Both the position numbers and the translations under genes were made by a program. Positions 5,819 to 18,879 of a stretch of 25,504 nucleotides of DNA are shown piece by piece. Each line of letters begins with the position of its first letter. The first letter of the stretch is position 1. Source of the DNA: Bacteriovoracaceae bacterium (lineage in GTDB: Bacteria; Bdellovibrionota; Bacteriovoracia; Bacteriovoracales; Bacteriovoracaceae); assembly GCA_041586955.1 (NCBI GenBank), contig JBFGZE010000044.1:1-25504 (forward strand), read 5' to 3'. The notes under the pieces were generated by a model. That model was not told the DNA's origin. It was given only the letters and a program-made list of their open reading frames with translations, and ran no database searches.

Positions 5819-6076
5819 CTAGAGGTAATCGATGGTAATAATAATATCCTGGGTAGGTGAACTTTGATTACTTAATTCGAATGGAGATATTTGGCAACTC
5901 ATAATATCCTGATTAACAACGCATTTTTGGCAATGACCTCTCCCAATGCAGCTACTGGCAATAGGAATATTGTGGCGCTGGAGAATGCCCATCAGGTTTT
6001 CGTGCTCATTTTCTTTAGGGATTGTTAGCTCCAAGATAACCTGAGAGGAGGCCAGCCCCTTGATGACTAATCGCAT
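5819..6076 (-). CDS. Small 2Fe-2S ferredoxin-like protein
   Basis: IPIASSCIGRGHCQKC...MSCQ gives C-x5-C-x2-C plus a distal Cys. Confidence 0.82.
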   Translation of the reverse strand: MRLVIKGLASSQVILELTIPKENEHENLMGILQRHNIPIASSCIGRGHCQKCVVNQDIMSCQISPFELSNQSSPTQDIIITIDYL

Positions 6077-7314
6077 AAAAGATGTGTTGGTTGTCTCTCA
6101 TCGATAACTAAGCTGGACTCCTTGTTTTTCCAAATTAGTCCCCATACTTCACCAATTTTTCTGGAATGATATGGGTTTAGTTTGGTGGAAAGAATACGAT
6201 CAACTTCTTGACTGGGGAGAGATTGTGACTCAAATATATAGCGGCTAGGATTAGTCGTTTTAATATGACGTGCCTGTTTCAATAACTTTATTAAGCTCAC
6301 TTTATCGTGGCCAATGACAGCTTCGTCCATCGTTAGCTGGTGAAGGATTTGGCCACTATCAGGACCACGTAATGAAAAAAGGGCCATTTGTGATGTTTCA
6401 TTTTTTTGATGGCAAAAGGACAAGGGAGTGAGAGCGTTTTTAGATATCAATGGGCCTTTTGGAGAGTTGACTTTGATAAAATCTGGGCCATTACTTGTAA
6501 CACCGACAAATATTTTGTTCTTAAAGATAAGAGAGAAAATATTAAAATTGGAATCCCATTCTTTTGAGTTTACAACAACTTGGTGATCGTAGAGGCCAAA
6601 ATCAAGGTTGCACTTAAGACCTTTTTTAGAAGTGGGGAAAAGGGGTGGGGCAAACTGCTTTGTGGATACGCCCGTTTGAAGATTATTTTTCATAAAGGGT
6701 AATAATTGAAATCGTTTGAAAGTTTCTCCAACGTTGAGTGGTTGTCCTGCCCGAAAAAATAGACCTTCGAGGGCCTTCTTTTTTTGAGTAAAGAATGGTG
6801 ATGACTGATTTTCTTGAAGAAAGTGCGATAGGTATTGATCAACCTTGATCCTGTCAGGTAAACGCCCCTCTATATGGCGCGTGAGTGAAAGCAGAGGGTT
6901 TACGCCACCTGCAAGGTGTTGGAGTCCGATTAAAAATGGCCATTTGATTGATTGGTTTTTTTCCATCAAATTATTAAAGTCATTGGCCTGAAATTTATCC
7001 TTATCTACAATGAGATAATAGAAGCGAGAACCTGGGGTGGTTGTCTCGGGCCTAAAATAAAGCTGGGTTAACGCCAATATTGCAGCGGCCTTTTTAAAGG
7101 AAATATTAGGATGACGTTTTAAATAATCCAATAAAAACGTATTCGCTTGTAGGGACTTGGAGCCTATACTAAGTGCTGTATTTGCTTCGCAGGAAACTTT
7201 AGCATTGGCGGGAACAATCTCAACGCTCTTTTGTTCTGAGTTAATAAGGTGAACAATGCTACTGCAGCTGACTGAAAGGGCAAATATAAAAGGAAGAACA
7301 AATTGAACTTTCAT
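6067..7314 (-). CDS. Hypothetical lipoprotein
   Basis: 415-aa ORF with signal MKVQFVLPFIFALSVSC. It overlaps both neighbours, and no domain was recognised. Confidence 0.7.
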   Translation of the reverse strand: MKVQFVLPFIFALSVSCSSIVHLINSEQKSVEIVPANAKVSCEANTALSIGSKSLQANTFLLDYLKRHPNISFKKAAAILALTQLYFRPETTTPGSRFYYLIVDKDKFQANDFNNLMEKNQSIKWPFLIGLQHLAGGVNPLLSLTRHIEGRLPDRIKVDQYLSHFLQENQSSPFFTQKKKALEGLFFRAGQPLNVGETFKRFQLLPFMKNNLQTGVSTKQFAPPLFPTSKKGLKCNLDFGLYDHQVVVNSKEWDSNFNIFSLIFKNKIFVGVTSNGPDFIKVNSPKGPLISKNALTPLSFCHQKNETSQMALFSLRGPDSGQILHQLTMDEAVIGHDKVSLIKLLKQARHIKTTNPSRYIFESQSLPSQEVDRILSTKLNPYHSRKIGEVWGLIWKNKESSLVIDERQPTHLLCD

Positions 7315-7732: not shown

Positions 7733-7758
7733 ATGATCAGCGATAAAATTTTCTTGGG

Positions 7759-7780
7759 AAAGATTTGCCCAAAAATCTTT
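7759..7780. promoter_or_regulatory. Palindromic putative transcription-factor site
   Basis: Perfect 8-bp inverted repeat AAAGATTT-gcccaa-AAATCTTT between divergent promoters. Confidence 0.45.
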
Positions 7781-7806: not shown

Positions 7807-7812
7807 TATAAT
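7807..7812 (+). promoter_or_regulatory. -10 box of the candidate sRNA
   Basis: Perfect TATAAT with no plus-strand gene downstream and no canonical -35 at 16-18 bp. Confidence 0.55.
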
Positions 7813-7816
7813 AAGA

Positions 7817-7895
7817 TTGTGGATGACAGGAAGTTATTCATAAGTAGGCAGGAAGCCAAAAGAGAGGGGCCTTTGCAGGGGGCCCCTTTTTTTTT
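7817..7895 (+). ncRNA. Candidate CsrA/RsmA-binding small RNA (Csr/Rsm-like)
   Basis: Hairpin 1 is TTGTGGATGAC-AGGAA-GTTATTCATAA (11 bp with G-U pairs). Hairpin 2 is GGC-AGGAA-GCC. An intrinsic terminator follows, and TATAAT precedes the unit. Confidence 0.65.
7858..7895 (+). terminator. Rho-independent terminator, possibly also serving the convergent scoB operon
   Basis: AGGGGCCTTT-GCA-GGGGGCCCCT followed by a T run to 7895. The G-U pairs favour the plus strand; the minus strand gives a weaker stem with a CTCTCTTTT tail. Confidence 0.8.
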
Positions 7896-7953: not shown

Positions 7954-8565
7954 CTATAAGGGCAACTTTAAGTCTTGCTCTACAACCCCTGGTGCCAGTT
8001 TAATAACATCAAAGGTTTTACCATTGGGAGTAAAAAGGCCTTTGTCTGTGACAACTTTATGAACAACACTCAAACCTGTGAGAGGTAGTTCGCATAATTT
8101 TTTAAGTTTGCTTTCTCCTGCTTTATTAAAATGAGTCATCATGATAATCACTTCTTTGGCCCCGTTGACCAAATCCATTGCACCACCCATACCAGTTACT
8201 TTTTTTCCAGGAATCATCCAATTGGCGAGGTTACCTTTAGTATCCACTTCCATTCCGCCCAGGACACAGAAGTCTAAATGCCCGCCACGAATCATGCCAA
8301 AGCTGAGGGCGCTATCAAAGAAGCTAGCACCTTTGGCAATGGATATTGTTTCCTTTCCGGCATTGATAAGTGTAGGGGAGACTTCATCTTTTGCAGGTCT
8401 TCCCTCGACCCCTAGTACACCATTTTCAGAGTGTATAATAATATCTAATGTTTTGGGGATTCTTTCTGCGATAATCGTTGGTAGACCAATCCCTAAATTA
8501 ACAGAGCAGCTATTGGAAAAAAGGGAGATGACTTCATCGGCCATTTGGTTTTTATTCCAACTCAT
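7954..8565 (-). CDS. scoB: 3-oxoacid CoA-transferase subunit B
   Basis: Motifs VNLGIGLPT, SENG (catalytic Glu), IRGGHLD, GNLANW and GMGGAMDL. Confidence 0.93.
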   Translation of the reverse strand: MSWNKNQMADEVISLFSNSCSVNLGIGLPTIIAERIPKTLDIIIHSENGVLGVEGRPAKDEVSPTLINAGKETISIAKGASFFDSALSFGMIRGGHLDFCVLGGMEVDTKGNLANWMIPGKKVTGMGGAMDLVNGAKEVIIMMTHFNKAGESKLKKLCELPLTGLSVVHKVVTDKGLFTPNGKTFDVIKLAPGVVEQDLKLPL

Positions 8566-9260
8566 TATTGATCCTTCGTTACGAGGTATTCGATTTCGTT
8601 TTTATAGTTTTGACCTTGAAAGATTCTTTGGACAAAAATGCCCGGCAGGTGGACATCTTCGGCCGGTATTTCCCCAAGTTCGACCAATTCTTCGACCTCA
8701 ACGATGGTGACTTTTGCGGCCATGGCCATGAGAGGAGAGAAGTTACGAGCGGTTTCTTTAAACCATAGATTGCCAAAGGTGTCGCTTTTTTGGGCCTTAA
8801 TAATCGCAAAGTCTGCATGAAGCGCCTCCTCCAAAATGCAAGGGCGATCAAAGGTTTTGACCTCCTTGCCCTCGGCGATCAAGGTTCCAACTCCTGTTGG
8901 GGTATAGAAAGCGCGGATACCAAGTCCCGCGGCACGGATACGCTCTGAAAAGGTTCCCTGGGGGATCAATTCTACTTCCACTTCACCGCGAAGCATTTGT
9001 TCTTCTAGATCAGGGTTTCCCCCGACATAACTACAATAGGCCTTTGATATTTGATGATTTTTAAGTAACTTAACTAGGCCACGACCGGAGTTTCCTATAT
9101 TATTAGAAATAATGGCAAGCTCTGTGAGATCTTTCCGCTGCGCTAGAGCATCGATACAATTTTCAGCAATGCCGCAAAGTCCGAAACCTCCACTCATCAA
9201 GGTTTGACCACTTTTAATATCAAATATGGCCGACTGAGCGTCTTTAAAAATTTTTGTCAT
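8565..9260 (-). CDS. scoA: 3-oxoacid CoA-transferase subunit A
   Basis: Motifs GGFGLCG, ISNN, SYVG, PQGTFSERIRAAG, FYTPTGVGT and VHLPGIFV. Confidence 0.93.
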   Translation of the reverse strand: MTKIFKDAQSAIFDIKSGQTLMSGGFGLCGIAENCIDALAQRKDLTELAIISNNIGNSGRGLVKLLKNHQISKAYCSYVGGNPDLEEQMLRGEVEVELIPQGTFSERIRAAGLGIRAFYTPTGVGTLIAEGKEVKTFDRPCILEEALHADFAIIKAQKSDTFGNLWFKETARNFSPLMAMAAKVTIVEVEELVELGEIPAEDVHLPGIFVQRIFQGQNYKNEIEYLVTKDQ

Positions 9261-10444
9261 GATTTCCTTCCTTGAATGATGTCGCTTATGATTTTCATAC
9301 CACGCTGAAGATCATTGAAAGGCATATTTAAGGCCGGTGCGACGATGAGGTTTTTGGGAGCAGTAATCATATAGAGCCCGTGCTTTAAGAATGTGCTCCA
9401 TTCGACATCAATAGTTAAGGCAATATTGGCAATCATGCCAATGTTTCTAATACTGCTAACCTGGGGCAATTGTTCTAAAAGTTTTAGATGGCCGGTAAAT
9501 TGACTGATCAATTGATTAAGATGAGGTAAAAATTCTTGCTGGTTGATTAAATTTTGTGTCCCAATTCCTGCGGCCAAAGTCAAGGGGTGCCCATAATTTG
9601 TAAGTCCGGCCGGAAGTATATGTTTATCAAAAAAATCTGCAATAGAAGGAGTCGTCCAAACGGCGCCGAGAGGGGCCATCCCGCCACTTAGCGCCTTGGC
9701 CAAGCAAATAAAATCGGGTTTTAAAAATGGGTAATGATGAAAACCAAAGGCCTTGCCGGTACGATAAAGTCCACAGACGACCTCGTCGAGAATGAGAAAT
9801 ATATTAAACTCATCACAGAGATCCTGGATCCCTTTATACCACATCTGAGATGGAATGATGACACCATTTCCGCCGGTAATTGTTTCCAAACAAATCGCAG
9901 CGATATTTTCTGGCCCATGATCGAGAATTATTTGGCGGGTTTGACTGAGAGTCGGATCATTTTCTGGCTCCGGAATGCGAACCGTCCACTCATCAACTGT
10001 GCTAATCGCCTGATTGCGCCAATCCCCACTAATACTAATCGCGCCAAGGGTAGCACCATGATAGGAGTTTTTTCGCGCTAAAACTTTATTTTTTCCTTTA
10101 ATGAAGCGTGCCATCTTAAGCGCATTTTCAATGGATTCTGCACCTGAAAGTGTGAAGAAAATTTTCCCAGGCCTTTCAATTTTATCTATTAGAGAGTTGG
10201 CGAGACTCTCTTTTTCGGTAAAAATGGCCTTCGGTGATGCCGCCAAAAAGCGGTCAGTTTGTTCTTTGATGCGGTCAATAATGATTTGTGGGGAGAGTCC
10301 AAAGGATAGGTGATAACTGGTGGAGACCATATCCAAAATTGCCTGGTCATCTTCTGTTATATAATGAAATGCATCGACCCCTTTAATTTTAAAGCAATTT
10401 GCCATACTTTGATTTTGCCAAGTTAAGTAAAAGGGGGAGCTCAT
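9257..10444 (-). CDS. Class III PLP-dependent omega-aminotransferase (beta-alanine/taurine transaminase-like)
   Basis: Motifs FFTLSGAESIENALK, SYHGATLGAISISGD, ILDEVVCG, LAKALSGG (PLP Lys) and GLTNYGHP. Confidence 0.9.
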   Translation of the reverse strand: MSSPFYLTWQNQSMANCFKIKGVDAFHYITEDDQAILDMVSTSYHLSFGLSPQIIIDRIKEQTDRFLAASPKAIFTEKESLANSLIDKIERPGKIFFTLSGAESIENALKMARFIKGKNKVLARKNSYHGATLGAISISGDWRNQAISTVDEWTVRIPEPENDPTLSQTRQIILDHGPENIAAICLETITGGNGVIIPSQMWYKGIQDLCDEFNIFLILDEVVCGLYRTGKAFGFHHYPFLKPDFICLAKALSGGMAPLGAVWTTPSIADFFDKHILPAGLTNYGHPLTLAAGIGTQNLINQQEFLPHLNQLISQFTGHLKLLEQLPQVSSIRNIGMIANIALTIDVEWSTFLKHGLYMITAPKNLIVAPALNMPFNDLQRGMKIISDIIQGRKS

Positions 10445-11557
10445 TTATTCCTTCCTACGAAAAGTTTTTTTTCCAGCGTTGTCACTAATGGTAAAATGAT
10501 ATTCTTTATAATTGTCGTCATAAGTTGGGCAGCCTCGCCAAAAAGAGGAGATCCCATCGCTTAAGTTTGCAATGCCACCCCCACAAGTTGTTGAAGGGTC
10601 TTGGGCACCAGATTCATAATGTGAACAAAGGCTCATTGGATAGTTATCGTGGTTTTGGAATAAGTTCTTAAGGTCAGAAAGGGTTCGCACTTGATTTGCT
10701 TTTTCTGTTAATAATTCAAATCTTTTATGAGTTGTTGAGCTGATGGAGTCTTTCATTTCCATAGTTTGAATCACGTCACCTAGGCAATGATTGGTGTGAA
10801 AAGCGTAAGGTTTGTCAGCACTAGTTTGGCCAACACATTCAGAATGGTTTGGAGTGACTTCCCAGTGCTCTCCAATAGATGGGTCAGAGACGATATAATT
10901 ATGGCCGCTCGTTACTGGAGAGTTTTTGAGCATATCGTCCATTTCTCTGACAGATTGTTTTTCGAGTAGTGCACGAACAAAGACTGGCCAAATGATCCCC
11001 GCTTTGGCGTTCTGAGTATTAATATTATTAACGCCGACTAGGCAATTGTTGGTGTTGATCCCCATTAAGGCCGGACAACCTACCAATGATAAACAAAGAA
11101 GTTCGGAGCTTTTATTTGTCTCTGGGACACGAATAAGACAAAGAAAATCTTTTGCTGATTGGTGCATATCCCATGTTTGACCTGACAATTCACCTTCCGG
11201 CGTGCGAATATGCATGGTGGAGCACCCTTCCTCGGGCAACTCAATATCTCTAAAGTCTGTGTAGTTATTGAGAATGACTATCTCTTCTAAAGAAAGATTC
11301 GCACCTTGGCGGATACCTTCTAATTCGTCACACCAATGAGGCGCAAAATCTTTAGTCACGTCCCATTGGGCCTGGGCCAAGGGCGCCAGGTGATTTTTTA
11401 AAAGAGGGTTTTTGTTTAACATAAGCTCTTGTCGAATATTCGCTAACTCTCTTATGCTCTCGCGAAAGGCCTCGCCGTGGGCCAGACCCCACTCAAGAAA
11501 TGTGTCACCATATTTGTATTCTATAAAAGGGAAACCTTGGTCCATGTTTTTATCCAT
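10445..11557 (-). CDS. Peptidase C45 autoproteolytic Ntn acyltransferase/hydrolase (isopenicillin-N acyltransferase/Tan family)
   Basis: N-terminal WGLAHGE, autocleavage site G111-C112 (EEG/CST), GQTWD and HTNH. Confidence 0.88.
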   Translation of the reverse strand: MDKNMDQGFPFIEYKYGDTFLEWGLAHGEAFRESIRELANIRQELMLNKNPLLKNHLAPLAQAQWDVTKDFAPHWCDELEGIRQGANLSLEEIVILNNYTDFRDIELPEEGCSTMHIRTPEGELSGQTWDMHQSAKDFLCLIRVPETNKSSELLCLSLVGCPALMGINTNNCLVGVNNINTQNAKAGIIWPVFVRALLEKQSVREMDDMLKNSPVTSGHNYIVSDPSIGEHWEVTPNHSECVGQTSADKPYAFHTNHCLGDVIQTMEMKDSISSTTHKRFELLTEKANQVRTLSDLKNLFQNHDNYPMSLCSHYESGAQDPSTTCGGGIANLSDGISSFWRGCPTYDDNYKEYHFTISDNAGKKTFRRKE

Positions 11558-14500
11558 TTGTTATCATTTTGGAAAATTGTTGCATTTGAGCTAATGAAGG
11601 GCATACAAAGTAGGTTTGCCCCTCTTTTTTAAAGTACGGTTGATAATGAAGTGGGCAATTTCCTGTAAATTGTCCTTTCCCCCGGTGGAGGAAAATATCG
11701 CTTATACCGAACTCTGTGAGTTTAAGGCGTAAGTCTTTTTCAAATGTATCAATGATACGATTCATTTTCTCGTGATTTTGGTGCCAGCGGTCACAGTATT
11801 GATGATAGAGTGCCATGGCCAACTCATCTCCATCCCAAGTAGAGATCATCATGAGTGGTTTTTCAAGAAAGAGATGATCTTCGATAAAGACCAATGCCCC
11901 TTGACCTCCTAGCCAGAAAAAGCCTCCGTCTGGTGTAATTTCCGGATCGCTTGCAGCGAGGAAAGTGTCTTGGTGATAATGGTAAGCTTTAGAAGCCGTT
12001 TCATTATAGAGTAGAGGTGTCTCATATTTTGTGGCCAACCCTCTTAAACCTTTTAAGAATTCTTTGGGGACAGGTTTAAGAATGTTTTGAGGTAAGGGCT
12101 CAATCCAGATTGCTAAATATTGTTCCTTTTTGAGTTGATCTTCTACACTTTTTAGAACTTGTTGAAAGTTTTCAGTGGTAGGGGTTTCCATTTGGTCGAC
12201 GTCAAAGTAACCAGGTTCCTTATCACAGGTATTTCCTAGCGAGCGACTTAAGAAAGAACCATTACCAAAATGATGACCTTTAAACGTTAAATGCTTGGCC
12301 GATTTTTTCTGCTTAAACCAAATTGTTTTCGCCAATTTATCAACACATTCTGATTGTCCACTGGCGGTAAAACCATGGCGGAGTGACTCTGGTAATAAAT
12401 TGAAAATAGACTCAACGTGAGTTAGGAATTTTTCAGACACAAAATTAGATAAGCAAACTTTATTGTTAATTATTGGCATTAACTCTTTTATTTGTTCTGC
12501 CGTCATTTGTTCCATTCGATGATGAGAATGATGGCCATTCGATAGGTTAATTGATTCTTCTTGCCATTGGGTCTTAATTTCATAAAAGAGAACATCGCGA
12601 TGTTCCTCAAAGTCTGGGTAGTCCTCGGGCATATAGAATAATTCGGTAGCACCTAAAGATTGGTTGATGGCGAGCATACTACCAGCAAGGCGATCTCTGT
12701 TGCGTCCTGTTATTTTTTGAATACCTTTGGAAATGGCAATGGCGATGAGGGCAGATTTAATTTTGCCGCCCATTGAGCGACCTTGGAAATCTGGCCGAAC
12801 AGTCGCATCGAGCATGTAGAGCGCCTTGGGGTTATTAAAATCTGGATCTCGTCTGATACCTCTTTCCAGAGGAGTTAAGGACATTGGTCCGGCAAAGGTC
12901 ATTGCCTTGATAATTCCTTTTTGGCAAAAAGCGAGGGCAATTCCATTTTGGTTCTTGGCCACAGCTTCAAATTTTTCAATGTTGGTTTGTCTGGTCACTT
13001 CATAGACTTGCTCTTGGATTTCTTGAATTTGGCCTTTGAATTGAGAAAAGTTTTGCCCATCTATGACGACTAATTCAATTTCTTCATCTGTGACGAGAAG
13101 ACCGTTAATATGGGCGATGACTTGATCCATTTGAGGCAAATTACCTTGTAATGACTTAAGTTTTAGCTCTGTTAGGTATTCATGCCATTGGTAAAGTGAT
13201 TGAGCACTTTTATTTTTAGTGGCCGCCATTTGTGGTCGCGTACCTTCTACTTGATTAAAGATTTCATTACACAAGGTATCGAGTTGCTCGAATAGGAACT
13301 GGAGGTCTTCTGTTTTGTACGCCGTATTGAGCCTAAAGCGCAGAGTATGTGATCCTGCAGGATAATAAAGAAGTCCAAACTCAAAACGTTTAGCAATAAA
13401 TGTTGGGATAAAATCCTTATTTTTAAAATCAAAGGCAAAGGCCATTCCTTGAAGGCGTGGGCATTCGATATGATCACTATATTTGGTAATTAATTGGTCG
13501 AGCTGTTGTCTGGTTTCATTTTCCAATTGATGGATCTGTTTTTGCATTTGATCGAGGGCCAGCCCATGAGAGAGCCCCCTGATAAGAGAGGCCACCTGAA
13601 ATTCCATTTCTCCTAGGGGAATCGCCGTAGAGCGATGGGGAGATAAAACCATACCGACTTGCGCCTTTTTGGCACAGGTGACGTAATCGGGAAGAAGTGG
13701 TTTGCCAAATTGGTCTTGAAGATTAAAGGCCTTATGCCAAAAAAACTCACGGCCTAAATGAAAACCAGTTTGGACTTCATCATAAATAAGGGGGATATTA
13801 TGGGTGCGTGCCATAATTAAAAGGGCGGTGTGAAAGCGATTGGTACTATAGCGATCTCCACCTTCACATTGCATTGGCTCGATAATTATTGAAAAGACCT
13901 CTTTACTGTCTATGATTGATTTAACCTTTAATAGTGAGTCGATTTCTTTTTCGATTTGAGGGTCTTGTAATAATTTTTTATTAAAGGCCGACTTGGTAAT
14001 AGCGGGGTTTTCCCAATTTTGATGCCAGTCTTGCGGAATTGTGTGAGTGATTTCATCGCCTTTGTACTCGGGGTAGGGCGCGAAGATCGCCTCATGACCT
14101 TCCCAGGCAAAAGGTTCTCTCTTACTTGGGTTCCATGTGGCCTGAAGAGACATCAGCATTCTGCCGTGGAAGGAACCTTCAAAAGCAAGAATTTTTTTCG
14201 CTTCAGGGTAAACTCTTGAGCTATAGCATAGGCCGAGAGCTGTTTCATTGGCCTCCGCACCTGAGTTTGTATAGCGCGAGTAGACTCTCTCCCAATTAAG
14301 TTTTCTTTTGAGAAAAGATTGGCACCCCTTATGGACCTTTAAAATGTTTTTTGAATTAGGGTTATTGGTATAGGATTCCTGAAAATGGGCCGGGGCCATT
14401 AATGGCATGGCGTTAAAGCCTAATCCTAATGTGGCGATCTGACTAGCAGCATCCATCATATAATGGGTCATGCCATTTGGAGCTTGAATGGCCATATAAG

Positions 14501-14633
14501 GGCCAATGGAATTTTTCAAATCAGTGAGATAGGCCTTCTTTTCAGCAGGTATCATATCATTGGCGTAATGTTTGGCCAATATTTCCTTGGCGTAGTTTTC
14601 GCTTTCTTGATTGATGAGTGGTAAATTTTCCAT
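11550..14633 (-). CDS. Three-domain fusion: Lat/GABA-AT-like class III aminotransferase + GNAT acetyltransferase + catalytically degenerate second aminotransferase domain
   Basis: Residues 1-460 carry SGAEANE, SFHGR, EPMQCEGGD, DEVQTG, AKKAQVG and TLRFR. Residues ~515-690 carry GNAT motif A TVRPDFQGRSMG. Residues ~695-1027 carry SGQSECVDK, IWIEP, NETAS and ISTWDG. Confidence 0.85.
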   Translation of the reverse strand: MENLPLINQESENYAKEILAKHYANDMIPAEKKAYLTDLKNSIGPYMAIQAPNGMTHYMMDAASQIATLGLGFNAMPLMAPAHFQESYTNNPNSKNILKVHKGCQSFLKRKLNWERVYSRYTNSGAEANETALGLCYSSRVYPEAKKILAFEGSFHGRMLMSLQATWNPSKREPFAWEGHEAIFAPYPEYKGDEITHTIPQDWHQNWENPAITKSAFNKKLLQDPQIEKEIDSLLKVKSIIDSKEVFSIIIEPMQCEGGDRYSTNRFHTALLIMARTHNIPLIYDEVQTGFHLGREFFWHKAFNLQDQFGKPLLPDYVTCAKKAQVGMVLSPHRSTAIPLGEMEFQVASLIRGLSHGLALDQMQKQIHQLENETRQQLDQLITKYSDHIECPRLQGMAFAFDFKNKDFIPTFIAKRFEFGLLYYPAGSHTLRFRLNTAYKTEDLQFLFEQLDTLCNEIFNQVEGTRPQMAATKNKSAQSLYQWHEYLTELKLKSLQGNLPQMDQVIAHINGLLVTDEEIELVVIDGQNFSQFKGQIQEIQEQVYEVTRQTNIEKFEAVAKNQNGIALAFCQKGIIKAMTFAGPMSLTPLERGIRRDPDFNNPKALYMLDATVRPDFQGRSMGGKIKSALIAIAISKGIQKITGRNRDRLAGSMLAINQSLGATELFYMPEDYPDFEEHRDVLFYEIKTQWQEESINLSNGHHSHHRMEQMTAEQIKELMPIINNKVCLSNFVSEKFLTHVESIFNLLPESLRHGFTASGQSECVDKLAKTIWFKQKKSAKHLTFKGHHFGNGSFLSRSLGNTCDKEPGYFDVDQMETPTTENFQQVLKSVEDQLKKEQYLAIWIEPLPQNILKPVPKEFLKGLRGLATKYETPLLYNETASKAYHYHQDTFLAASDPEITPDGGFFWLGGQGALVFIEDHLFLEKPLMMISTWDGDELAMALYHQYCDRWHQNHEKMNRIIDTFEKDLRLKLTEFGISDIFLHRGKGQFTGNCPLHYQPYFKKEGQTYFVCPSLAQMQQFSKMITNG

Positions 14634-14641
14634 AAGGGCCT

Positions 14642-15640
14642 CTATGATGGAGAAAGGGTTAGGTTTATTTTTTCTTCTAGAAATTGTTGATAAGAATGAC
14701 CATGGTTCTCTAATAAAGTTGGAAACATGGAGATTGGGGTATGACCAGGAAAGGTATTGATCTCATTAATATAGAATTGCCCATCTGTGGTCAGAAAAAA
14801 ATCGATTCTTGCTAGGTCTTTGAGCTTAAGTCCTTTAAAGGCCTTGATGGAATTGATCTGAAGTGCCTCAATAATTTCAGGAGTTAAATTCGGTGCTGGA
14901 CAAAGCGTCTTAGTATGACTTTGCTTACTGTATTTTTCTTCATAGGTGTAAAAACCTTTAGGGCAAATAACTTCACCTGGTTGGGTCGCGATGACTTTAT
15001 TTTCAAATTCATAGGTCGCGATTTCCAATTCTCGACCTATAATGGTTTTTTCTAATAGGACGTAGGGTGATAAGGCCAATGCTTTTCTCAGCGCCGGTAC
15101 TAGTTCATCGGCATCCGTCACATGGTAACAACCAATAGAAGAGCCCTGGCTTGATGCTTTAACAAAAATATCACCATACTCCTTAAAGAAAGTGCTTGCC
15201 TTGTCGATTTCATCAGAGTCTAAATTATTGATAAAACAAAATGGCGAATTGGGAATATCCAATTGGGTCAACCATAACTTTGTAGAGATTTTATTAAAAC
15301 AAAGAGTACTTGCTTCCGGACCACTACCAAGATAGGGAAGACTCATTAACTCAAAGACACTCTGGATATGACCTGTCTCCCCTGGTGGGCCATGAAAGCA
15401 CGGTATGGCAAAGTCGAGGTGGTACTGACCTTCATTGGTTGTAAGCGTTTTATCTTTTCTAAGCTCGACCTCAAGACCTCTAGCATCAACACGAGTTCCG
15501 TCTGGTTTTATTTCTACCCAATGGCACCGGGTATTAGGGATTGCATCCAATTTTTCTTGGAGGAAGCGGGCAGAAATTAATGAAATGTCGTGCTCGCTAC
15601 CACCGCCTCCACACATGAGGAGGATATTTTTGTCTGTCAT
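14642..15640 (-). CDS. ddl: D-alanine--D-alanine ligase
   Basis: Motifs GGGGSEHDISL, HGPPGETG, KASSQGSSIG, FYTYEEKY, RIDFF and NEINTFPG. ATG 15640 has an AAGGA SD. Confidence 0.95.
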   Translation of the reverse strand: MTDKNILLMCGGGGSEHDISLISARFLQEKLDAIPNTRCHWVEIKPDGTRVDARGLEVELRKDKTLTTNEGQYHLDFAIPCFHGPPGETGHIQSVFELMSLPYLGSGPEASTLCFNKISTKLWLTQLDIPNSPFCFINNLDSDEIDKASTFFKEYGDIFVKASSQGSSIGCYHVTDADELVPALRKALALSPYVLLEKTIIGRELEIATYEFENKVIATQPGEVICPKGFYTYEEKYSKQSHTKTLCPAPNLTPEIIEALQINSIKAFKGLKLKDLARIDFFLTTDGQFYINEINTFPGHTPISMFPTLLENHGHSYQQFLEEKINLTLSPS

Positions 15641-15661
15641 GAGCAATCCTTTGTCCTTTAG

Positions 15662-17410
15662 TTAGCGAAGGGCATCCGGCATTTTTTGGGCGCTGAGCTC
15701 ATCAAACTTAGCGTTAAGTTCCTCAATCGATAAAGACTCCGAACTTCTCTCTCCATAGGCCCGAATACTAACTGTTTTTTCTTCCATTTCACGATCCCCT
15801 ATAACTAGCATAAAGGGAACTTTTGCTTTTTGAATTTGACGAGTCTTATAGCCCATCGTTTCGTTGCGATCATCGACTCGAATACGGAAGCCTTTTGACA
15901 TCCACTTTTGGCAAAGGTCATTGGCGTATTCTAAGTGCTGTTCATTATTAACAGGGACAATGACTGCTTGTTCTGGAGCTAACCAAAATGGAAAGGCACC
16001 TGCAATATGTTCTAAGTAAACGCCAAAAAAGCGTTCTAATGACCCTAATAAGGCGCGATGGATTACAACGGGACGCTCGTCATTTCCTTCAGCATTCGTA
16101 TATTTAAGGTCAAAACGTTCAGGCAGCTGAAAGTCTAATTGTATTGTTCCCAATTGGTAGTAACGCCCTAAAGCATCAGAAATTTCTACATCTATTTTTG
16201 GCCCATAGAAAGCACCATCACCTTCTTTAATCGCATAGTCATGACCACTTTTTTCCAGTGCCGACCTTAAAGCGTTTTCGGCCTTGTCCCATGTTGCATC
16301 GTCACCGGCCTTTTTTTCTGGGCGAGTGGATAGATTGACCTTTATATTTGGGAATTTAAAATGGTTATAGCAAACGAAAAACATTTCCATTAGGTTAACG
16401 ATTTCTTTTTCTATTCCATCGATGTCGATAAATATATGGGCGTCATCTTGGCAAAAGGTGCGCACGCGAGTGAGTCCTCCCAGGGCCCCAGCTTTTTCGT
16501 AGCGGTGAAGGCGACCAAAATCGGCATAACGAAGAGGGAGGTCTCTATAGCTGTATTTATAATGTTTAAACATCAGCATATGGCAGGGGCAGTTCATTGG
16601 TTTTACTGCATATTCACGCTCATCGATATTAGAAAAGTACATATTCTCTTTGTAGTGAGCGTAATGACCGCTTGTATGCCATAGGTCTGAATCAAGAATT
16701 TGGGGAGTAATGACTTCATCGTATCCAAAACGGTGATAAATTCTTCTCATGAAGTCGACCAATTCATTATAAACTGTTGCACCCTTAGGCATAAAAAACG
16801 GAGAGCCAGGTGCAACTGTTTCGAAATGAAATAACTCCAATTCTTTACCTAGTTTACGATGGTCTCTTTTCTTTGCCTCTTGAAGGAATGTTAGATAATC
16901 CTTTAATTCGTTGCGGTCAGCAAAGGAAGCAGCGTAAATCCTTTGAAGCATTTGGTTATTGGAATCCCCACGCCAATAGGCACCTGCAGTGTGGAGCAAT
17001 TTAAAACTCATAGGTAATTGAGAGGTGTTTTCAACATGAGGTCCACGGCATAGATCAATAAAATCACCCTGTTTATAGCACGTGATTTCATCACCTTCGG
17101 GAATCGCTTCAATCAATTCTACCTTGAGGGTTTGGCCTTTATCTTGAAAAAAACGAATGGCCTCATCCCGTTGCATGACAATTCTCTCAACCGGGATTTT
17201 CTCTTTGATAATTGCTTTCATTAACTTTTCGATTTTTTTAAGGTCTTCATCTGTTAGGCGATGATCCATATCAATATCATAGTAAAAGCCATTATCAATG
17301 ACAGGGCCAACTCCAAATTGAACATGACTATCTGGCCATAATCGTTCAATTGCTTGGGCCATGAGGTGCGCACTTGTGTGTCTAATGGTATCAATATCGA
17401 ATTTTGGCAT
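15662..17410 (-). CDS. thrS: Threonine--tRNA ligase, short form without N-terminal TGS domain
   Basis: Motifs RHTSAHL, DLCRGPH, RDHRKLG, KPMNCP, GAFYGPKID and IHRALLGSLERF. ATG 17410 follows a GGAG SD. Confidence 0.97.
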   Translation of the reverse strand: MPKFDIDTIRHTSAHLMAQAIERLWPDSHVQFGVGPVIDNGFYYDIDMDHRLTDEDLKKIEKLMKAIIKEKIPVERIVMQRDEAIRFFQDKGQTLKVELIEAIPEGDEITCYKQGDFIDLCRGPHVENTSQLPMSFKLLHTAGAYWRGDSNNQMLQRIYAASFADRNELKDYLTFLQEAKKRDHRKLGKELELFHFETVAPGSPFFMPKGATVYNELVDFMRRIYHRFGYDEVITPQILDSDLWHTSGHYAHYKENMYFSNIDEREYAVKPMNCPCHMLMFKHYKYSYRDLPLRYADFGRLHRYEKAGALGGLTRVRTFCQDDAHIFIDIDGIEKEIVNLMEMFFVCYNHFKFPNIKVNLSTRPEKKAGDDATWDKAENALRSALEKSGHDYAIKEGDGAFYGPKIDVEISDALGRYYQLGTIQLDFQLPERFDLKYTNAEGNDERPVVIHRALLGSLERFFGVYLEHIAGAFPFWLAPEQAVIVPVNNEQHLEYANDLCQKWMSKGFRIRVDDRNETMGYKTRQIQKAKVPFMLVIGDREMEEKTVSIRAYGERSSESLSIEELNAKFDELSAQKMPDALR

Positions 17411-17524
17411 ACTTAGGGCTCCATCAAAGAAAAAAATCACCTATTTTGGCAAAGTAACATATCAATGGAGTCCTTATAAATCAATGAGTTAAAATGACCT
17501 TTTTACATAGAAATCAGAAGGTTT

Positions 17525-17554: not shown

Positions 17555-17601
17555 AATATTGCCTACCGGCATAAGGAAGAGGGGAACACTAGGGAGTGGA
17601 T

Positions 17602-18879
17602 ATGACCCAGATTCAAGGGCATGAAGAATTAAGAAACTCGGTTCATTTAGGAAGCGCTTTAGGTGTTATTCCAGAGGGAGATCATCTTCTCGGTGAATCA
17701 CTTGAAATCAGTTCGTATGAATTAGGGAAATCTCATTATCAATTGGGCAAAATTTATTACGATAAATCTGACCTAGGAAAAGCTGAAACTCATTTTATTA
17801 AGGCCCTCAGTTTCACAGAGGAACCTCGCGATTATTATTCAAAATTTAAAATTTTAGGTTTTCTTATTCGTATCGCCTCTGAGCAATTGGATGACCATAA
17901 GGCGGGCCTGTATATTCAGGATGCTGATAATATTGTTGAAAAAATGAGTACGGCCTTAGGCACTCTTAACGCTGAATATTTTTATAATGTTGGCATCGTG
18001 AATAATTATAAAGGGGATTTTGATCAAGCTAGAATCCAGTTCGAATTAGCGCATAAAAAGTCACGTGAAGAAAATGAGCCTGAGCTATTGTCCAAATGTC
18101 TTCTTTCTTTGGCCGTCAATTGCTTTAATAGAAGAGAATTTGAAAAGTCCTTAGCGTATTTAGAGCAACTAGGGGAGCTTTTAACTATTATTAAAAAGAA
18201 TTATTTATCGGGCGCCCGCTTTTTATTTGCCGCAAAAGTATATAATGAAATGGATGACTCTAAAAAAGCTCTCGACTTTTATCGCTTGGCCAACCAAACC
18301 CTTCAGGGGAAAAAATGCTGGAATTTATACGGTTATATTTTACTTGGTAAAGGTGTTGTTTTTAAGAGAAATGGTCAGTACGACCAGGCCTTAACTTTTT
18401 TTGAGTTAGCAAAAGAGTCGACTGATGCCCGTGTTTTTAAACGCTTATCTCAGTTAATTGATTCTGAGATTCAAGATGTGAATGATAGTAGTGTTGATAT
18501 ATATTTAGACCGTGTTAATCGTAAGATTAAAGAGCGTACTCTTGGAACAATAGATTTTAAGCACCGCTTTATTCTCTTGGAAATTTTATTTTTATTGGCC
18601 AAAAATGCTGGCTCTTATTTTGATAAAGAGCAACTGGCGAAATGTATTTGGAAAGATGAATACAACCCTCTAATTCATGACAAATTGATTTATACTTCTG
18701 TTAGTCGCCTTCGGAAATTAATTGAACCTAAAAATGATTCAGGGGTCAAAAGGAAGTATATTGTCCGTGGAAAAGACGGCTATACATTTAACCCCATGGT
18801 TAAAATTCGCTTTCAGCAAGAGACAAAACCCCAGACTCAGGGTGCTATTGGTAATATCGAGCTTGGTTCACCTGTTTAA
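17602..18879 (+). CDS. TPR-repeat protein with C-terminal OmpR/PhoB-type winged-helix DNA-binding domain
   Basis: TPR-like helices (YQLGKIYY...AETHFIKAL; YNVGIVNNYKGDFDQA; LGKGVVFKRNGQYDQAL). The C-terminus reads KEQLAKCIW...IYTSVSRLRKLIE...YIVRGKDGYTF. ATG 17602 follows GGAG. Confidence 0.85.
   Translation: MTQIQGHEELRNSVHLGSALGVIPEGDHLLGESLEISSYELGKSHYQLGKIYYDKSDLGKAETHFIKALSFTEEPRDYYSKFKILGFLIRIASEQLDDHKAGLYIQDADNIVEKMSTALGTLNAEYFYNVGIVNNYKGDFDQARIQFELAHKKSREENEPELLSKCLLSLAVNCFNRREFEKSLAYLEQLGELLTIIKKNYLSGARFLFAAKVYNEMDDSKKALDFYRLANQTLQGKKCWNLYGYILLGKGVVFKRNGQYDQALTFFELAKESTDARVFKRLSQLIDSEIQDVNDSSVDIYLDRVNRKIKERTLGTIDFKHRFILLEILFLLAKNAGSYFDKEQLAKCIWKDEYNPLIHDKLIYTSVSRLRKLIEPKNDSGVKRKYIVRGKDGYTFNPMVKIRFQQETKPQTQGAIGNIELGSPV

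Follow-up and report, generated by a model that had tools for sequence, protein, structure and literature searches.

A conserved ~77-nt RNA gene with two GGA hairpin loops in Bacteriovoracaceae, a candidate CsrA decoy

Known Csr/Rsm-type RNAs and the Bacteriovoracaceae locus

Known RNAs of the Csr/Rsm type carry many sites per molecule for the RNA-binding protein CsrA. They measure 100-400 nucleotides (nt; PMC7366521) and, although CsrA is widespread, RNA antagonists of it are known essentially only from the Gammaproteobacteria, with FliW presumed to take that place elsewhere (PMC7366521; PMC7652899). A stretch of 25,504 nt (G+C ~39%) from a Bacteriovoracaceae bacterium (contig JBFGZE010000044.1), referred to as the window, was analysed because of a minimal two-site RNA sponge for CsrA that a preliminary description had proposed at positions 7807-7895. 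Judged from its sequence, the region is almost certainly a conserved small RNA (sRNA) gene, an independent unit for a ~77-nt non-coding RNA that would be transcribed from the plus strand and would represent a new family of the Bacteriovoracaceae. The sponge proposal was borne out in part: an RNA gene of ~77 nt with a -10 hexamer, two GGA loops and a terminator was present, and the role of the RNA as a CsrA decoy has, on the sequence features considered below, about an even chance of being correct.

The unit lies between two minus-strand genes, one divergent and one convergent, and each of the elements earlier described in this self-contained plus-strand arrangement was found at its position (Table 1). 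RNAfold predicted a three-hairpin fold for the plus strand with an energy of -36.4 kcal/mol (z -4.9), equalled by 0 of 200 shuffles. The minus strand reached -17.8 kcal/mol (z -1.3), and 23 of 200 shuffles were equally good. Consistent with the earlier remark that the G-U pairs form on the plus strand only, G-U or U-G occupied 29 of the 227 pair cells in the family alignment presented below; these cells would be mismatches if the other strand were transcribed, and they fix the transcribed strand. The heptamer CAGGAAG is present at 7827 and 7849, and the GGA of hairpin 2 lies 22 nt past that of hairpin 1. The linker AAAAGAGA is able to pair with the U tail, and the opposite strand thereby gets a U-rich tract. 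There was no good -35 element by eye upstream of TATAAT, and a simple terminator scan of the window missed the terminator (0 found).

The evidence for the element from the window alone was only moderate. CAGGAAG occurred four times against 3.5 expected, and two AGGAW pentaloop hairpins no more than 40 nt apart were found in 14 of 500 block shuffles. The element is placed beyond chance by its recurrence in 11 further genomes, where it is conserved and covaries.

Table 1. Positions of the RNA unit and of neighbouring features in the window
Feature	Position	Strand	Remarks
-10 hexamer TATAAT	7807-7812	+	read from sequence
Hairpin 1	7817-7843	+	arms 7817-7827 and 7833-7843; 11 pairs, three of them G-U; apical loop AGGAA 7828-7832; closing pair C-G
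Hairpin 2, GGC-AGGAA-GCC	7847-7857	+	GGC 7847-7849; AGGAA 7850-7854; GCC 7855-7857
A-rich linker AAAAGAGA	7858-7865	+	between hairpin 2 and terminator
Intrinsic terminator	7866-7895	+	GGGGCC 7866-7871; 9-nt loop UUUGCAGGG; GGCCCC 7881-7886; T9 7887-7895
Upstream box TTGGGAAAGATTTGCC	7754-7769	+	degenerate, with 3 mismatches to the family box TGGAAAAnTTTACC
P0001 open reading frame, 119 amino acids	7311-7670	-	divergent neighbour; orphan operon
CoA-transferase subunit B open reading frame	7954-8565	-	convergent neighbour; Pfam CoA_trans, 1.1e-38
Orphan operon gene	6067-7314	-	lineage-specific
Orphan operon gene	5819-6076	-	lineage-specific
Gene cluster ending with CoA-transferase B	7954-17440	-	syntenic in Bacteriovoracia-type loci
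TPR/winged-helix gene	17596-18879	+	divergent from thrS

The unit resembles RsmX, RsmY and RsmZ of Pseudomonas and CsrB and CsrC of the Enterobacteria in being a stand-alone gene with its own promoter and upstream box, GGA at the hairpin tips and an intrinsic terminator. It differs from them in scoring below the Rfam gathering score, in having 2-3 sites rather than many, in its length (~77 nt vs. 100-400 nt; PMC7366521), and in belonging to a different phylum with no paralogues seen in the sequence scanned. Rfam returned 0 families at the gathering score for the whole window, which upholds novelty in the databases searched, a point that the preliminary description had left to such a search. 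For the copy at one related locus (L009; such labels denote individual loci), the Rfam match with the best E-value was PrrB_RsmZ (RF00166; gathering score 44), which scored 18 bits with E 0.023. The AGGAU stem-loop of this model aligned with hairpin 1, and its terminator with the terminator; the match is a resemblance, not membership. No upstream palindrome of the GacA/UvrY type was found, the box sequence for this comparison being the generally known one; the family box TGGAAAAnTTTACC is a different imperfect palindrome.

The TwoAYGGAY motif comprises two neighbouring hairpins with GGA-containing hexamer loops and is suspected of binding a CsrA-like protein. The present RNA likewise has two neighbouring GGA-loop hairpins, but an additional A makes its loops A-Y-A-GGA-W, its hairpin 1 is long, and it occurs in other taxa. 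A comparable layout is found in bacteria that use FliW: the hag leader of Bacillus subtilis contains two GGA stem-loops (PMC13443453) and the flaA leader of Campylobacter jejuni titrates CsrA (PMC4894983). By analogy with these leaders, in which two GGA hairpins are also spaced for one CsrA dimer, a two-site RNA can hold CsrA. The leaders differ in being flagellin mRNA 5' leaders with one site over the Shine-Dalgarno sequence, whereas here no open reading frame (ORF) follows and the unit has its own terminator.

For Bdellovibrio bacteriovorus, a transcriptome study lists eight sRNAs of the attack phase (98-655 nt), none with a homologue in another species, and CsrA is not mentioned in the available part of that article (PMC3627812). 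The available part of the supplement to PMC13443453 contained 0 mentions of Bacteriovorax, Halobacteriovorax, Bacteriovoracaceae, Bacteriovoracia or Peredibacter. The RNA family was undescribed in Rfam and in the literature searched, bioRxiv supplements and subscription journals being outside the scope of the search.

Conservation, covariation and promoter of the RNA family

A word-indexed protein search with the 415-amino-acid neighbour P0002 gave no homologue, and CoA-transferase B was therefore chosen as the query with which 80 related loci were fetched. The nearest relatives showed 64-76% amino-acid identity and were mainly metagenome-assembled genomes (MAGs) whose titles name Bacteriovoracaceae, Bacteriovorax, Halobacteriovorax, Bdellovibrionota or Oligoflexales; MAGs of Planctomycetota, titled Pirellulaceae or the like, were interspersed among them. 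The Bacteriovoracaceae and Halobacteriovorax MAGs agree with the earlier placement of the element outside the Gammaproteobacteria. The window was identical to none of the 80 loci, and its gene order was kept in the Bdellovibrionota-type loci.

By blastn, the 94-nt unit matched ten loci, on the opposite strand to the CoA-transferase gene and either just past it or 1-4 kb past it. A covariance model was built from 11 sequences, and the window and the 80 loci (1.44 Mb, both strands) were scanned. Ten loci scored 83-104 bits and the divergent copy at L008 was added at 45 bits, rising to 66.6 bits when the model was rebuilt. This approach, which the preliminary description had recommended for orthologous regions, recovered 11 loci beyond the window, giving 12 copies in all. 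The 11 positive loci (of 80) were found among the 20 assigned to the Bdellovibrionota by record title or synteny, with 0 among the other 60, and all were Bacteriovoracaceae-type MAGs. The next-best matches, at no more than 27 bits, were the reverse strand of the family's own terminators. The mean column identity was 78% in the RNA and 50% in the upstream region; the adjacent proteins are ~70-75% identical. When any two AGGAN pentaloop hairpins no more than 45 nt apart were searched for (1.42 Mb, both strands), 16 pairs emerged, 11 of which were this RNA (ten family copies), and a T tract followed only one of the remaining five.

Pairing statistics were obtained from a model-fitted alignment of the 12 copies, which is biased towards the structure. 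In this alignment, 93.4% of the 227 pair cells were paired, compared with 45-55% when the 3' partners were slid by 1-3 columns. The paired fraction was 87% in hairpin 1 and 100% in both hairpin 2 and the terminator stem. Changes on both sides were present in 10 of 19 pairs (six of ten in hairpin 1 and four of six in the terminator), and the covariation score was reached by 0 of 500 shuffles. As the stem of hairpin 2 is nearly invariant, it provides neither support for the pairing nor contradiction of it. RNAalifold recovered the same helices from a plain MAFFT alignment. The same three hairpins were also found by single-copy folding (11 copies), with the GGA of hairpins 1 and 2 apical and unpaired. 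The features of a stand-alone sRNA gene were present: a -10 element of its own, a terminator with compensatory changes, covariation, and no conserved ORF.

The sequence AGGA was invariant in both loops of all 12 copies while the hairpin-1 stem covaries, so that the GGA loops at the centre of the earlier proposal are conserved. Hairpin 1 carried the motif A-Y-AGGAW-G-U in 11 of 12 copies, reading AGGAUGU in eight, AGGAAGU in three (the window among them) and AGGAUGC in L008. Hairpin 2 read GGCAGGAWGCC in 11 of 12 copies and GGGUAGGAUGCCU in L008. The distance from GGA to GGA was 21-25 nt across the family. The terminator loop CUUUGCAGG was unchanged in 11 copies, L008 having AGCAGG in a different, longer stem. 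This loop carries an invariant GCAGG, mostly with GGG instead of GGA. Of the two sites proposed earlier, both apical GGA loops stand, but the count may be incomplete given the GCAGG in the terminator loop. The linker before the terminator was A-rich in 12 of 12 copies; those between the hairpins vary, and there is consequently no conserved single-stranded seed. A small peptide was considered and rejected: the window, L003 and L012 lack the AUG of AGGAUG, and no ORF is conserved.

The outer stem of hairpin 1 (7819-7843 in the window) was conserved in sequence, UGUARG...CUUAC[A], with covariation in the inner stem. Its halves presumably resemble gammaproteobacterial GacA/UvrY half-sites, lying 13-16 nt apart and inside the transcript. 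The outer stem may represent a coincidence or a second recognition element.

The -10 element took the forms TATAAT, TATACT, TAAAAT and TAACCT, located 5-7 nt from hairpin 1 in the ten copies with upstream sequence. From this spacing, transcription would start near 7819. An imperfect palindrome, TGGAAAAnTTTACC, was present ~35-36 nt upstream of the -10 element in 9-10 of the ten upstream regions aligned. Its exact form GGAAAANTTTACC occurred five times in the 1.44 Mb of loci, each time (5/5) at the upstream-box position. L003 and L008 keep the RNA and the box, with P0001 not detected alongside, and the box is for that reason assigned to the RNA promoter, where it is a candidate transcription-factor site. 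A sigma-54 promoter at the box was rejected by inspection against the generally known consensus: the GG/GC spacing is unfit, TTTACC is read in most copies, and ~36 nt separate the box from a conserved -10 element downstream of it.

CsrA as a possible partner and rival explanations

In vitro selection (SELEX) with CsrA gave the consensus RUACARGGAUGU, in which a hairpin loop holds GGA and the flanking AC and GU pair; dual-site bridging takes place with sites 10-63 nt apart, more than 18 nt being optimal (PMC7652899). Both features were seen in the family, as in CsrA-sequestering sRNAs: the two apical AGGA loops are present in every copy, A-Y/G-U closure in 11 of 12, and the spacing is that given above. 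CsrA is encoded in the Bdellovibrionota, CsrA of B. bacteriovorus represses a GGA-hairpin reporter, and csrA was implicated in predation by a transposon screen cited in the same article (PMC13443453). The Bacteriovoracaceae, the host lineage here, are themselves predatory.

A number of observations weigh against CsrA as the partner. The family loop is a pentaloop, one nt shorter than the SELEX hexaloop, and that of the window itself reads AGGAAG, not AGGAUG. The stem of hairpin 1, with 9-11 pairs, is very stable; most SELEX ligands had no more than four contiguous pairs, and very stable structure may disfavour CsrA binding (PMC7652899). There are only two strong GGA sites and one GGR (GCAGG(G/A), in the terminator loop), not the many sites of known Csr/Rsm RNAs, and an RNA holding one dimer per molecule would need very high expression. 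The paralogues that the preliminary description had suggested looking for were not found by two covariance models in the window and 80 loci (1.44 Mb, ~20 kb per genome). Permissive Rfam scans of three copies gave nothing but sub-threshold noise apart from the PrrB_RsmZ match of L009: neither the window copy nor that of L008 matched CsrB, CsrC, PrrB_RsmZ, RsmY or RsmX at E≤10, and cmscan gave no TwoAYGGAY match at E≤10 in any of the three. A csrA homologue, earlier named as something the genome should contain, is supported at the level of the phylum by the report cited above, but tblastn with Escherichia coli CsrA gave no significant match in the window or the 80 loci; the best match (E 0.35, in L006) lay inside an unrelated ORF of 362 amino acids. 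In flagellated bacteria other than the Gammaproteobacteria, moreover, the CsrA antagonist is usually FliW (PMC7366521), and antagonism by RNA and by FliW has been described as mutually exclusive (PMC7366521; PMC7652899).

The RNA would probably be transcribed from the sigma-70-type -10 element, which lacks a good -35, likely with the help of an activator at the conserved box TGGAAAAnTTTACC, about -55. The transcript would begin with the base of hairpin 1 and run as far as the GC-rich terminator. If CsrA is the partner, the tips of hairpin 1 (A-Y-AGGAW-G-U) and hairpin 2 (C-AGGAW-G) would fill both RNA-binding faces of one CsrA dimer, with the GCAGG of the terminator loop as a possible weak third contact. 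In this way, the loops would compete with GGA sites of mRNAs that overlap Shine-Dalgarno sequences, so that accumulation of the RNA would titrate CsrA and de-repress its targets. The complete proposal, namely the first antagonist RNA of the Csr/Rsm type from beyond the Gammaproteobacteria, a ~77-nt clamp for a single CsrA dimer controlled by a regulator acting through a lineage-specific box, is put forward tentatively, its chance of being correct falling somewhat short of even. Were the mechanism true, a new phylum would have a Csr-type RNA of minimal form, holding one dimer; should these genomes contain fliW as well, CsrA would have both an RNA and a protein antagonist, in conflict with the view that the two exclude each other. 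Even without CsrA as the partner, the RNA would constitute a new structured family of unusually strong conservation (~78% column identity), and the covariance model is available for its detection in other genomes.

Two rival explanations also assume an RNA. It could be a base-pairing sRNA, in which the AGGAW loops, or the A-rich linker and U tail as an Hfq module, contact CU-rich mRNA or the 3' end of the 16S rRNA. With its 5' hairpin, A-rich stretch and U-tailed terminator, the molecule has the general shape of a trans-acting sRNA, and the loops are its only conserved unpaired bases. However, the conserved unpaired stretch is 5 nt long and purine-rich, a look-alike of the Shine-Dalgarno sequence and not of its complement; the single-stranded linkers, the usual location of a seed, are freely variable; and a motif shown twice, 21-25 nt apart, suits a dimeric protein better than a seed. 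We regard base pairing as unlikely to be the function. The RNA could also engage, as decoy or scaffold, some other RNA-binding protein in place of CsrA, for example a lineage-specific one such as P0001 or one recognising CAGGR in all three loops. YAGG or CAGG(A/G) is common to all three loops, the terminator loop being invariant though mostly GGG, and P0001, whose family is confined to the same lineage, has a homologue adjoining the RNA in 8 of 12 copies, among them four with insertions on the opposite side of the RNA. A-Y-AGGAU-G-U is nevertheless a specifically CsrA-like loop context, P0001 is not beside the RNA in L003 and L008, and its structural model gave no significant match in the PDB (best E 0.046, TM ≤0.40); another protein partner is accordingly thought quite unlikely.

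The remaining rivals concern the nature of the unit. There might be no RNA gene at all, the GC hairpin being the terminator of the CoA-transferase operon and the inverted repeats DNA operators for the P0001 promoter. The terminator is indeed usable on the minus strand, where a U-rich tract follows it, and the conserved outer stem of hairpin 1, TGTARG...CTTAC in DNA, is operator-like. This explanation is very improbable in view of the wobble cells that pair on the plus strand only, a minus-strand fold no better than shuffles, a -10 element at a fixed distance from hairpin 1, and the retention of the unit without P0001 in L003 and L008. Furthermore, in L032, L009, L012 and L004, 1-3 kb of unrelated genes are inserted between the CoA-transferase gene and the whole unit, which shows that the RNA is not simply the terminator of that operon. 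A cis-acting leader or attenuator of a downstream co-directional gene would fit a same-strand ORF within ~30 nt of the terminator in L032 and L012, and at ~200 nt in L009. The next downstream gene is, however, the convergent CoA-transferase B in 7 of 12 copies (the window, L017, L022, L016, L024, L003 and L008), the downstream genes of the remaining loci differ from each other, and no alternative antiterminator fold was predicted. A leader is the least probable of the explanations considered, and hardly to be expected.

Neighbouring genes and remnants of the RNA

Housekeeping genes in the window include thrS, ddl, nusA, infB, rbfA and surE, together with the CoA-transferase pair. By tblastn, a P0001 homologue was found beside the sRNA in 7 of the 11 loci, and none was detected in L003, L008, L011 and L024, the last two of which are cut at the contig end. 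The P0001 family comprised 88 members, all hypothetical, from Bacteriovoracaceae, Oligoflexia and Bdellovibrionales sources, with the invariant core FTY.P.P....GYRE..FD. P0001 belonged to no Pfam family (best E 0.12). Its AlphaFold model, with a mean pLDDT of 75.7, showed a generic beta-alpha-beta-beta domain. P0001 is one of the three lineage-specific genes of the minus-strand orphan operon. P0002 had tblastn matches of 22-27% at the syntenic position and no Pfam family.

Between P0001 and the stop of CoA-transferase B (7954), nothing but the sRNA terminator had the look of a terminator, and its sequence suggests that it is probably bidirectional, also ending the convergent CoA-transferase operon.

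At two further loci, L021 (10618-14681, minus strand) and L002 (14186-14209), the sRNA is reduced to its final 23-24 nt, corresponding to the 3' half of the terminator and the T tract. A full copy was absent within the 10 kb examined at L021, and there was no integrase near the L002 remnant. The L021 remnant directly adjoins a gene for a tyrosine recombinase (10718-12025), a pair of orphan ORFs and an SSB gene. The tRNA and tmRNA genes serve integrative elements as attachment sites, and by analogy L021 looks like an integrative element with the 3' end of the sRNA as its attachment site.

CoA-transferase B closes a long cluster on the minus strand with the order thrS, ddl, a 1027-amino-acid protein, an AAT-like acyltransferase, a second class-III aminotransferase, and CoA-transferases A and B. 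The 1027-amino-acid protein consists of an N-terminal class-III aminotransferase domain and ~570 uncharacterised residues. The gene divergent from thrS encodes TPR repeats and a C-terminal winged helix of the OmpR/PhoB type (Trans_reg_C, 2e-09) without a receiver domain, and its position is conserved in related loci.

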